IMG/VR virus record: IMGVR_UViG_2693429733_000009
Coordinates: 1 to 4,246 of that record
DNA: 4,246 nt
Reading direction: 5' to 3' (one strand)
Origin: a virus
Taxonomy: Duplodnaviria; Heunggongvirae; Uroviricota; Caudoviricetes
The translations under genes and the position numbers were made by a program. The notes under the pieces are model-generated. The model did not search any database. It was not told the DNA's origin and worked only from the letters and a program-made list of their open reading frames with translations. This document shows, piece after piece, positions 1,974 to 4,077 of the stretch (its first letter is position 1; every line of letters begins with the position of its first letter).

Positions 1974-2255
1974 TCACCCCCTGAATCCCGGCGGAATTTC
2001 GGTATCCGGTTCAGAAATATGATTCACACAACGCTGGTTGTTCGTGCCGCTTACCGGGAGCAACCAGGGGTTTTCAAAATTCCGGTCCGGCCCAAAAAAC
2101 GTCGTCGCTCGCTGAACAAATTCCGTTCCCGTTTTCCCGGTAGCCGCCAGGTATCTCGCGTAACGCCTCACACCATCCAGCATGGTCTCTGGTGGCACCC
2201 CCTCGCGCAATCTGGCCTTCCAGGCACTGAATGCGGATTTCTTCGGGTTTGCCCC
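1974..2255 (-). pseudogene. Truncated copy of the replication-initiator C-terminal domain (copy A, 282 bp, cut off by the N run)
   Basis: Collinear with 3030..3311 without indels. ORF 1974..2210 encodes ...MLDGVRRYARYLAATGKTGTEFVQRATTFFGPDRNFENPWLLPVSGTNNQRCVNHISEPDTEIPPGFRG, stop TGA 1976..1974. Upstream end abuts the 11-N run. Confidence 0.6.
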
Positions 2256-2266
2256 NNNNNNNNNNN
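2256..2266. other. Run of 11 N (assembly gap or masked bases)
   Basis: Literal n characters in the sequence, joining an initiator 3' fragment to a fragment of the 5' end of a paralog of the 36..458 gene. Confidence 0.99.
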
Positions 2267-2407
2267 GGCAAGAACGCTCATCAGATATCTTGTTGCCCCA
2301 GTTTTAGCTTCCAGTTGTCGTAACGTCTCGCGCCCACTCTGGCGTACGAGTTCAACAACCTGTCCTTTAATTTTTTCCCGCTCTTCTTGTGTAAAAACTT
2401 TTGCCAC
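2267..2407 (-). pseudogene. 5' fragment (first ~46 codons) of a paralog of the 36..458 gene, cut off by the N run
   Basis: GTG start 2407..2405, preceded by GGAGGG. Encodes MAKVFTQEEREKIKGQVVELVRQSGRETLRQLEAKTGATRYLMSVLA. Collinear with 318..458. Confidence 0.55.
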
Positions 2408-2447
2408 AAGCCCTCCTGAAAATTACCTCATGACCAGAAATTAACAC

Positions 2448-2829
2448 TTACCCCCTGAAGCCCGGCGGAATTTCGTTATCCGGTTCAGAAATATGATTCA
2501 CACAACGCTGGTTGTTCGTGCCGCTTACCGGGAGCAACCAGGGGTTCTCAAAATTCCGGTCCGGTCCAAAAAACGTCGTCGCTCGCTGAACAAATTCCGT
2601 TCCCGCTTTCCCGGTCGCCGCCAGGTATCTCGCGTAACGCCTCACACCATCCAGCATGGTCTCTGGTGGCACCCCCTCGCGCAATCTGGCCTTCCAGGCA
2701 CTGAATGCGGATTTCTTCGGGTTTGCCCCGGCACGCAACGGGTATTCCCGCCAGACCTGTTCGAACACATCCGGATAATCCACTCGTCCCACAGGCTGCC
2801 CGGTGTTTTCCGGGGCTACCCGATCGGCT
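2448..2829 (-). pseudogene. Truncated copy of the replication-initiator C-terminal domain (copy B, 382 bp, cut off by the N run)
   Basis: Collinear with 3030..3411 with 11 substitutions and no indels. Encodes ...VDYPDVFEQVWREYPLRAGANPKKSAFSAWKARLREGVPPETMLDGVRRYARYLAATGKAGTEF...PPGFRG, stop TAA 2450..2448. Confidence 0.6.
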
Positions 2830-2850
2830 NNNNNNNNNNNNNNNNNNNNN
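2830..2850. other. Run of 21 N (assembly gap or masked bases)
   Basis: Literal n characters, joining an initiator 3' fragment to a fragment of the 5' end of a paralog of the 36..458 gene. Confidence 0.99.
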
Positions 2851-2989
2851 CAAGAACGCTCATCAGATATCTTGTTGCCCCAGTTTTAGCTTCCAGTTGT
2901 CGTAACGTCTCGCGCCCACTCTGGCGTACGAGTTCAACAACCTGTCCTTTAATTTTTTCCCGCTCTTCTTGTGTAAAAACTTTTGCCAC
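2851..2989 (-). pseudogene. 5' fragment of a paralog of the 36..458 gene, cut off by the N run
   Basis: GTG start 2989..2987, preceded by GGAGGG. Identical to the 2269..2407 copy. The 40-bp intergenic stretch 2990..3029 matches 2408..2447. Confidence 0.55.
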
Positions 2990-3029
2990 AAGCCCTCCTG
3001 AAAATTACCTCATGACCAGAAATTAACAC

Positions 3030-3698
3030 TTACCCCCTGAAGCCCGGCGGAATTTCGTTATCCGGTTCAGAAATATGATTCACACAACGCTGGTTGTTCG
3101 TGCCGCTTACCGGGAGCAACCAGGGGTTTTCAAAATTCCGGTCCGGCCCAAAAAACGTCGTCGCTCGCTGAACAAATTCCGTTCCCGTTTTCCCGGTAGC
3201 CGCCAGGTATCTTGCGTAACGCCTCACACCATCCAGCATGGCCTCTGGTGGCACCCCCTCGCGTAATCTGGCCTTCCAGGCACTGAAAGCGGATTTCTTC
3301 GGGTTTGCCCCAGCACGCAACGGGTATTCCCGCCAGACCTGTTCGAACACATCCGGATAATCTACTCGTCCCACAGGCTGCCCGGTGTTTTCCGGGACTA
3401 CCCGATCGGCTTCCCGCTGAATGGCGGAATCGGCTTCAGGCTGCTGCAGTTGGTGTGATTGCTCCGGCCTTGCGGTCATCACCTGCTGCACAGCGCCCGA
3501 ATCGGCTTTCAGCGCATACGCTGAATCGGCTTCCGGTGTCGTGCCTGCTGGCTGACCAAGATTGACGGTCTGAACATCCCCTGCCTGGTTCGTGGCGTTT
3601 TTTACGCCATGGACCATAGTGTTTTGATCTTCTTNTATCTGTCGTGACTCGTCGTGACATGTGCGTGACATTTCGTGACGCGCCGTGACAATCGCCAT
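3030..3698 (-). CDS. Replication initiator (O-like), C-terminal portion; probably the 3' two-thirds of one gene whose N-terminal domain is in another frame
   Basis: ORF 3030..3698. C-terminal ~115 aa are conserved under purifying selection across three copies. Upstream part is a low-complexity, acidic, linker-like region (EADSA/KADSG/EADSA repeats). Contains one N at 3635. The start is uncertain (ATG 3698 or ATG 3617), or the gene continues from the N-terminal frame. Confidence 0.6.
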   Translation of the reverse strand: MAIVTARHEMSRTCHDESRQIXEDQNTMVHGVKNATNQAGDVQTVNLGQPAGTTPEADSAYALKADSGAVQQVMTARPEQSHQLQQPEADSAIQREADRVVPENTGQPVGRVDYPDVFEQVWREYPLRAGANPKKSAFSAWKARLREGVPPEAMLDGVRRYARYLAATGKTGTEFVQRATTFFGPDRNFENPWLLPVSGTNNQRCVNHISEPDNEIPPGFRG

Positions 3699-4077
3699 TT
3701 TGTTCCCGCTTTCTTTCCCTCTCTCGCTGCGCCCTCTTGCGCTCTGCAGGAGATTTTGCGGTTTGCGAAATATTGCCGTTGTCCTCTTTAAGCACCTGGC
3801 GTTTTTCCCATCCAGTGATTAAATCACCATCAAGTACCCGCCCCTGCATCGTCTGCAAAATTGAATCAATTACCTCTTCTGTCACGTCGAGCGCACTTGC
3901 CAAATCTTCTGTCGTGACATCAATGTGACCTCGCGTGACATTTCGTGACGCGCTCACCAGGAGGTGGATATACACTGCCATCACTGTTGCAATTGGCTGC
4001 CCTGACACCCTGGCAATTGTTCGCCACTTAGGGTCATTTGGCATGTCATGCCATAATCTGAGCCAAGCGTTAGCCAT
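3436..4077 (-). CDS. Replication initiator, N-terminal replisome-organizer-like DNA-binding domain; only roughly 3690..4077 is credibly coding in this frame, and the Arg-rich tail to 3436 is probably out of frame
   Basis: ORF 3436..4083 (GTG at 4083); preferred start ATG 4077..4075 with GAGGTG 3 nt upstream. N-terminus AWLRLWHDMPNDPKWRTIARVSGQPIATVMAVYIHLL fits the W.(K/R)L...DPK pattern of phage replisome-organizer N-terminal domains (from memory). Lies directly upstream of the DnaC-like loader module. Confidence 0.6.
   Translation of the reverse strand: MANAWLRLWHDMPNDPKWRTIARVSGQPIATVMAVYIHLLVSASRNVTRGHIDVTTEDLASALDVTEEVIDSILQTMQGRVLDGDLITGWEKRQVLKEDNGNISQTAKSPAERKRAQRERERKREQNGDCHGASRNVTHMSRRVTTDXRRSKHYGPWRKKRHEPGRGCSDRQSWSASRHDTGSRFSVCAESRFGRCAAGDDRKAGAITPTAAA
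3641..3690. repeat. Iteron-like array 1: five direct CGTGAC repeats at about 10.5-bp spacing, a candidate replication origin inside the initiator gene
   Basis: CGTGAC at 3643, 3653, 3664, 3674 and 3684 (spacings 10, 11, 10, 10). Flanked at 3611..3640 by a stretch of about 65% A+T. Sits at the boundary between the N- and C-terminal domains of the initiator. Confidence 0.6.
3911..3953. repeat. Iteron-like array 2: four direct (C/T)GTGAC repeats at 10-11 bp spacing, plus one inverted copy (GTCACG) at 3881..3886
   Basis: CGTGAC at 3913, 3934 and 3944, TGTGAC at 3924. The 21-mer gcgtgacatttcgtgacgcgc at 3933..3953 is identical to 3663..3683 in array 1. Confidence 0.55.

Follow-up and report, generated by a model that had tools for sequence, protein, structure and literature searches.

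The origin of bacteriophage lambda, ori-lambda, consists of iterons, an A+T-rich tract and a palindrome located in the linker-coding part of the O gene (PMC6022878). In phage SPP1, oriL lies inside gene 38 and combines repeated boxes bound by G38P with an adjacent A+T-rich unwinding element, and G38P also binds oriR, a discrete region elsewhere in the SPP1 genome (PMC5737612). Here, we analysed a window, meaning the whole stretch of 4,246 nucleotides of phage DNA, which harbors an initiator gene with two separate clusters of the hexamer YGTGAC, one in the linker that joins the N- and C-terminal domains (array 1) and the other in the part coding for the N-terminal domain (array 2). Separate clusters that share the specificity of the origin core are familiar from plasmids: P1 (incA versus incC), F (incC versus ori2) and RK2 (extra iterons) carry auxiliary clusters some hundreds of bp away from the origin core, which are not needed for initiation as such and act by initiator-mediated pairing or looping, a behavior reportedly treated by Zzaman and Bastia in 2005. 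The satellite phage P4 has a bipartite origin, ori and crr, in which two separated clusters of one short repeat serve one initiator, a primase-helicase; the two sites lie approximately 4.5 kb apart and crr is essential. To our knowledge, none of the P1, F, RK2 and P4 clusters is embedded in the coding sequence of the initiator's DNA-binding domain. The literature that we searched contained no description of the origin of the present initiator family or of a second array, and no binding or replication experiment on this family was found there.

Comparison with the two phage systems revealed both shared and divergent traits. As in lambda O/ori-lambda, array 1 lies in the initiator gene linker between the DNA-binding and partner-binding domains, with the same order of elements. 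By contrast, lambda has four iterons, each an 18-bp palindrome to which dimers bind, whereas the units here have asymmetric 7-8-bp cores placed 10-11 bp apart, one per helical turn, and the initiator, unlike lambda O, has no match to the Pfam lambda O family. In the N-terminal coding part of lambda O, no iteron-like sequence was detected, even with 3 mismatches allowed. SPP1 gene 38 likewise has repeats followed by an A+T-rich tandem in a mid-gene linker, as in array 1, so that origin repeats and unwinding element reside in the initiator's own gene, and the NCBI name used here is 'phage replisome organizer'. However, the second SPP1 site, oriR, lies outside N-domain coding DNA, the match of the present initiator to the Phage_rep_org_N HMMs remained below threshold, and no second array was visible in the N-terminal part of gene 38.

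Table 1. Coordinates of the features annotated in the window.
Feature	Position	Strand	Description or evidence
Replication initiator gene	4077->3030	minus	PHROG, NCBIfam and Pfam scans, alignment, translation, PGAP names
Array 2	3913..3949	(-)	Four direct units (GTCACR on the gene strand), 10-11 bp spacing; YGTGAC starts on the + strand at 3913, 3924 (TGTGAC), 3934 and 3944
Inverted unit of array 2	3881..3886	(+)	32 bp (~3 helical turns) from the last direct unit
Array 1, putative origin core	3643..3689	(-)	Five direct units, 10-11 bp spacing, in the linker joining the N- and C-terminal domains; YGTGAC starts on the + strand at 3643, 3653, 3664, 3674 and 3684
Rest of A+T-rich tandem, putative DNA-unwinding element	3617..3642	(.)	GATAAAGATACA x2-3, then GATCAAGAAGATCAAAAC
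Palindrome	3586-3616	(.)	13-pair stem (TGGTTCGTGGCG..CGCCATGGACCA), just past the A+T-rich tract
DnaC/IstB-like ATPase (PF01695)	1221-1967	minus	Downstream of the initiator
DUF1627 protein	474-1217	minus	Downstream of the initiator
DUF977 protein	36-473	minus	Downstream of the initiator

YGTGAC occurs at exactly 10 sites in the window, all of them inside the two arrays (Table 1), and the positions that the preliminary description had given for four direct and one inverted copy in the N-terminal coding part were confirmed. That description had also pointed out a 21-mer shared at an offset of 270 bp; we found this sequence, GCGTGACATTTCGTGACGCGC, at 3663-3683 and again at 3933-3953, together with a second identical block, the 11-mer TCTGTCGTGAC, at 3638-3648 and 3908-3918, which has the same offset. 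When the longest same-strand chains of YGTGAC with 9-12 bp spacing were compared with 1500 first-order Markov simulations of the window, chains of 5 and 4 units were observed against no more than 2 in the simulations, and no more than 3 when any hexamer was allowed. Because the simulations never reached chains of 5 and 4, the arrays are real and lie far outside chance expectation. Array 2 is located about 230-270 bp, approximately 22 helical turns, upstream of array 1 in the same orientation, at a position 130-200 nt inside the initiator's own transcription unit. Neither in E. coli nor in the other taxa displayed was an A+T-rich trough or tandem found next to array 2. A scan for promoters and terminators near array 2 gave nothing above chance, the one promoter-like match in the region being located in array 1 on the opposite strand, and an Rfam scan of the window identified no RNA family.

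In the window as deposited, the minus-strand initiator gene appears as two frames, one labelled 'N-terminal' (4083->3436) and the other 'C-terminal' (3698->3030). Alignment with the phages Tritos and vB_EcoS-640R1, which are 96-97% identical to the window, revealed that one N, at position 3635, takes the place of 24 bases in the tandem GATAAAGATACA tract, so that 23 bases net are missing, or 35 should the source allele carry the 12-mer three times. The copy number of this 12-mer is polymorphic, with 2 copies in Tritos and 640R1 and 3 in strain HCP5S3_I2 and the O157-type allele. Once the missing bases are put back, the gene is one ORF of 356 aa; intact relatives have a single ORF of 356-360 aa, and other E. 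coli initiator alleles combine 360 aa with three 12-mer copies. The split reading frame is an assembly artefact, with the break just past array 1. An internal coding duplication had previously been offered as the reason why the N-terminal frame stays open through array 1, a premise that proved false: because N 3635 replaces 23-35 bases and hides them, the frame open through array 1 is simply the real gene frame. In this true frame both arrays translate to ASRNVT...VTT(E)D, so the shared peptide described earlier holds. Many database copies of the protein are labelled 'partial', which fits assemblies that break in this gene.

The encoded protein falls into phrog_3729 (PHROG 3729, 'replication initiation protein') and is named by PGAP either 'phage replisome organizer' or 'DnaT-like ssDNA-binding domain-containing protein'; its C-terminal tail is DnaT-like. 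The N-terminal domain aligned end to end with both Phage_rep_org_N HMMs, TIGR01714 (E = 0.016, 15.4 bits, cut-off 49.8) and PF09681 (E = 0.12, 12.8 bits, cut-off 23.3), in each case below threshold and short of the curated cut-off. A Pfam scan of the initiator detected no significant family, lambda O included, and a PDB sequence search gave no match. The gene resides in a Qin-type lambdoid immunity and replication module with the order cI, cro, YdaT/cII-like gene and initiator, followed by DUF977 or a DnaC-/P-like loader. What follows the initiator differs by allele and may be DUF977 directly, a DnaC-like protein, 'replication protein P' or a DnaB-like protein. An 847-bp initiator query matched 2311 of the 5426 complete E. 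coli genomes.

On the gene strand, the basic linker is followed by array 1, the A+T-rich tandem and the palindrome, and in all homologues displayed array 1 lies between the basic linker and the C-terminal domain. The GC minimum in Tritos, 0.30 and the lowest in the gene, directly adjoins array 1, and A+T-rich tandems (GATAAAGATACA, GAAGAA or GAGACAGATA) were present beside array 1 in every iteron class. Taken together, array 1, the A+T-rich tract and the palindrome look like an origin of the lambda/SPP1 type inside the initiator gene. We also observed two GATC (Dam) sites 9 bp apart at the end of the A+T-rich tract (AGATCAAGAAGATCAAAAC; approximately 457-474 of the L001 gene and 3617-3634 of the window).

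We extended the comparison to relatives of the initiator. A tblastn search with the N-terminal part recovered phage homologues at 35-71% amino acid identity from Aeromonas, Pseudomonas, Ralstonia, Microcystis and uncultured sources, most of which have both arrays at homologous positions and with a core of their own, GTCACG, CGAACGC or GCAACG. In pAEv1818 (Aeromonas) and phi1 (Pseudomonas), both with the GTCACG core, array 2 comprises 4 direct and 2 inverted units and array 1 comprises 3-4; one of the inverted units of phi1 overlaps a direct unit. The uncultured ct2G2228 (CGAACGC) has 3 units in array 2 and 5-6 in array 1, and Firinga (Ralstonia, GCAACG) has 5 direct and 3 inverted units in array 2 and 4 in array 1. 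In the uncultured ctOK67 (AACGC(G)), array 2 is degenerate with 1 unit and array 1 has 6 or more, and Mwe-JY25 (Microcystis) has no evident core and neither array. A scan of viral contigs with the E. coli sequence returned 80 loci, none of which differed from the query over the matched N-terminal part, and was replaced by a species-dereplicated genome scan, which added 60 loci; these range from Shigella to Burkholderia and Sphingomonas and include MAGs placed in other phyla. Relatives of the initiator occur across Proteobacteria and beyond.

In a sample of 64 species-level loci, a phased array 1 was detected in 59. Array 2 was counted as phased units of the same 5-mer as array 1 in N-domain DNA, and at least two such units were found in 49 of these 59 loci (at least three in 40, two in 9), while array 2 was down to one unit or none in 10 of the 59 loci that keep array 1. 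N-domain DNA contained a mean of 3.53 direct copies versus 0.28 expected from flank density, and 36 of the 59 loci carried at least one inverted copy. The preliminary description had suggested aligning homologues and asking whether array 1 is missing from some of them; it is array 1 that turned out to be near-universal (59/64) and array 2 that is sometimes missing (10/59). Array 2 would thus not be essential, being absent or reduced to at most one unit in these 10 loci.

The repeat core itself provided a further line of comparison. Motifs were called with a 9-12-bp periodic caller, an initial caller having picked a 6-bp A+T tandem. We observed that the core switches jointly in both arrays, between GTCACG, CGAACG, GCAACG, GTAACG and GTGACG. 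Hexamers of a locus's own core were counted 2.3-6.3 times in the N-domain versus about 0-0.3 times for most foreign cores, the exception being AACGCG (0.5-1.3), which overlaps CGAACG- and GCAACG-type units. The iteron classes are partly confounded with phylogeny. The true class assignment gave the maximum over all 40,320 label permutations, and the only ties were swaps among the three classes without array 2. De novo motif calling in each zone returned an identical periodic 5-mer in 46 of 49 loci, compared with 36% of non-own pairs, and independently called xxxACG classes were concordant in 43 of 46 loci. On a loop-masked domain tree we counted at least 12-15 class changes, a rough figure given a tree of approximately 50 columns; GTAACG arises in several backgrounds and in both arrays each time, and the inverted units co-vary with the class core too. 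Both arrays have 10/11-bp spacing and similar flanking-base preferences. The comparative data therefore comprise at least five matched specificity classes. Of the two readings offered in the preliminary description, that of two iteron clusters is supported by the homologous position, by the 10-11 bp phasing and by cores that switch together in distant homologues.

Three iteron classes carry, at a shared codon position ('RG-x-V-x'), a perfect 10-bp palindrome of the class's own core, found as GTCACGTGAC in five loci (L004, L095, L097, L099 and L110), GCAACGTTGC in four (L007, L142, L143 and L146) and GTGACGTCAC in two (L147 and L148); it is absent from the window's allele. In Erwinia phyllosphaerae (L113), units overlap at a spacing of 5 bp (CGTCACGTCAC...), a feature common to both arrays of the gene.

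Codon usage over array 2 was examined in 23 GTCACG-class species at amino acids with at least four codons. The majority-codon share was 0.90 in array 2 versus 0.46 in the rest of the domain, and third-position conservation was 0.77 versus 0.54 (p = 0.0017). By this measure, synonymous sites in array 2 are evidently constrained. Judged from the comparisons among relatives, array 2 is frequent and apparently selected, yet dispensable in evolution. Over the arrays, the peptides derive from the same hexamer translated in each of three rotating frames (V-T, x-H and S-R), and only a repeat at the DNA level with a period of 10-11 bp produces such peptides.

At the protein level, the direct units of array 2 encode aa 43-57 (ASRNVTRGHIDVTTE). 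In an AlphaFold model of the initiator (pLDDT 74), helices were placed at residues 4-14, 16-25, 29-45, 56-63 and 67-77, followed by a hairpin, and the direct units map to the end of helix 3, a loop at 46-55 with a dip in pLDDT, and the beginning of helix 4. The turn that joins helices 4 and 5 (L-D-V-T) is encoded by the inverted unit. Array 2 is thereby predicted to encode a variable loop that precedes the helix-turn-helix of a predicted winged-helix domain. Foldseek with this model returned no significant match (best E = 0.3), and its weak list was dominated by winged-helix regulators. The span from DPK to RQ is 80 aa at baseline and 87, 88, 95, 103 or 105 aa elsewhere, the inserts being extra units, and array 2 ranges from 2 to 10 units and changes unit by unit. 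An O157-type E. coli allele (L151) has six array-2 units with a 7-aa insert (TCHGVSL), and Pseudomonas sp. PA15 and Phytopseudomonas flavescens (L147 and L148) have 8-10 units and a loop 25 aa longer; in the expanded alleles the loop is built from iteron units in three frames. Locus L129 was grouped with L147, L148 and L151 as a further array-2 expansion. The 'xRG' motif of the loop is kept at the protein level in homologues without array 2, suggesting that part of the loop conservation is protein-driven and that protein and DNA constraints overlap. In a Serratia MAG (L127) and a Pantoea sp. (L138), both without array 2, an inserted module of approximately 110 aa separates the N-terminal domain from the acidic tract; it gave a weak match to MUG113 (GIY-YIG-like; E = 0.0036, below cut-off) and could represent the insertion of a mobile nuclease domain at the origin.

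Considering these data together, we propose that array 2 is probably a second initiator-binding iteron cluster, auxiliary in nature, which cooperates with the origin core at array 1. As its core, flanks and phasing match those of the origin iterons, the N-terminal domain that would bind array 1 should bind array 2 as well. The bound arrays would then cooperate, with the intervening DNA looped or wrapped to yield a larger initiator-DNA complex; such cooperation is suggested by the distance of ~22 turns, the common orientation, a possible helical register and the evolutionary dispensability of array 2. Measured from the last unit of array 2 to the first of array 1, the gaps cluster at 160, 169, 179, 189, 209, 219, 229 and 239 bp, and their clustering at period 10 (Rayleigh p ~0.001 for 24 distinct gaps, inflated by shared ancestry and edge-unit calling) is suggestive of two arrays in helical register, though suggestive only. 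The larger complex may tune origin firing, and it may well also damp expression of the initiator and of the downstream replication genes, since array 2 lies inside the transcription unit.

Array 2 could instead be a purely autoregulatory operator, at which bound initiator, possibly as dimers on a direct/inverted pair, blocks transcription through the gene and has no role at the origin. Its place 130-200 nt into the initiator's transcription unit would suit an operator, as would the inverted units and own-core palindromes (GTCACGTGAC, GCAACGTTGC and GTGACGTCAC) that recur at the same place, and plasmid Rep dimers use inverted half-iterons as operators, to which the inverted units here can be likened. 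Yet a promoter is absent at array 2, direct helically phased units dominate it as they do origin arrays, and the orientation shared with array 1 and the in-register gaps suggest that the arrays are coupled; we regard an exclusive operator as unlikely, and a role as a roadblock is compatible with an auxiliary iteron cluster. We consider it unlikely, too, that array 2 is a non-functional by-product, with units copied from array 1 by gene conversion or slippage and left unselected. Unit number is indeed unstable, array 2 has been lost in some lineages, and within the GTCACG class array 2 resembled its own array 1 slightly more than the array 1 of other genomes (21.7 versus 20.5, p = 0.004). Escherichia is the extreme of this within-genome likeness, with the 21-mer and the 11-mer identical at the same offset, and because own-array likeness exceeds the family norm, most of all in Escherichia, the identical 21-mer would be best explained as a lineage-specific exchange between arrays and not as a family-wide feature. 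Against a by-product stand the same codon position, orientation and phasing across proteobacterial classes and at least five iteron specificities, the constrained synonymous sites in 23 species and the co-varying inverted units. Even copied sites would not be neutral, since sites identical to those of the origin would be bound by the initiator.

The other reading in the preliminary description, a duplication, fared unevenly: Escherichia arrays are alike beyond the family norm, which suggests sequence exchange, but the similarity between arrays is confined to the repeat units. As a one-off internal coding duplication under protein-level selection, in which one array is the DNA shadow of a repeated peptide, this reading can point to ASRNVT...VTT(E)D in the same frame and to the offset of 270 bp, a multiple of 3. 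Its frame argument, however, rests on an assembly artefact, there is no flanking coding similarity where the likeness ends, the core has changed many times in both arrays jointly, and the codon is fixed where the amino acid allows 4-6 codons; among the homologues, none was seen to keep ASRNVT with different codons. With peptides that represent one hexamer in three rotating frames and with codons fixed in this way, we rejected duplication at the protein level as highly improbable. A core of a second, independent origin was the least credible of the readings weighed. Array 2 can match array 1 in its number of phased units; it is nevertheless evolutionarily dispensable, and the idea was rejected because the A+T-rich unwinding trough adjoins array 1 only.

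For an auxiliary iteron cluster cooperating with array 1, the nearest functional analogues appear to be the auxiliary clusters of P1, F and RK2 and the ori/crr pair of P4. As in the plasmids, there is a separate second cluster with the specificity of the origin core (in 43/46 loci). For array 2, the evidence that suggests dispensability is evolutionary, namely its loss or degeneration in 10/59 loci. Unlike the plasmid clusters, which are intergenic or flank rep, array 2 is found in a temperate phage and inside the codons of the initiator's predicted DNA-binding domain, and negative control by array 2 would be conjectural. P4 shares two separated clusters of the same repeat, and differs in their spacing, in the essentiality of crr and in an unrelated initiator.

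If array 2 is bound and functional, a regulatory DNA element would sit within the coding sequence of the same domain by which it is read, and the protein loop would be forced to follow the DNA repeat. This would offer a handle on how phage origins change specificity and a route to cross-talk or incompatibility among co-resident prophages, including the Shiga-toxin-era O157 prophage alleles. It would also give a practical account of assembly breaks in the initiator gene. A bolder proposal, which we hold to be quite unlikely, is that the loop encoded by array 2 (RNVTRGH and its class equivalents) helps to read the iteron, or that array 2 pairs origins and so produces incompatibility. Were the loop self-reading, a single mutational step in the repeat would modify both the site and its reader, permitting the rapid birth of new origin specificities; were origins paired, replicon-specific incompatibility would be expected among related prophages sharing one E. 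coli cell.

The remainder of the window contains several near-identical segments. Positions 1976-2255, 2450-2729 and 3032-3311 (the 3' end of the initiator gene) are mutually 98% identical, 2256-2555 and 2838-3137 are 99% identical, and 318-477, 2267-2426 and 2849-3008, which correspond to the start of the DUF977 gene, are 88-89% identical. Runs of N occupy 2256-2266 and 2830-2850. At 1976-3311 and at its N runs, the window resembles a scaffold in which prophage repeats have been collapsed.
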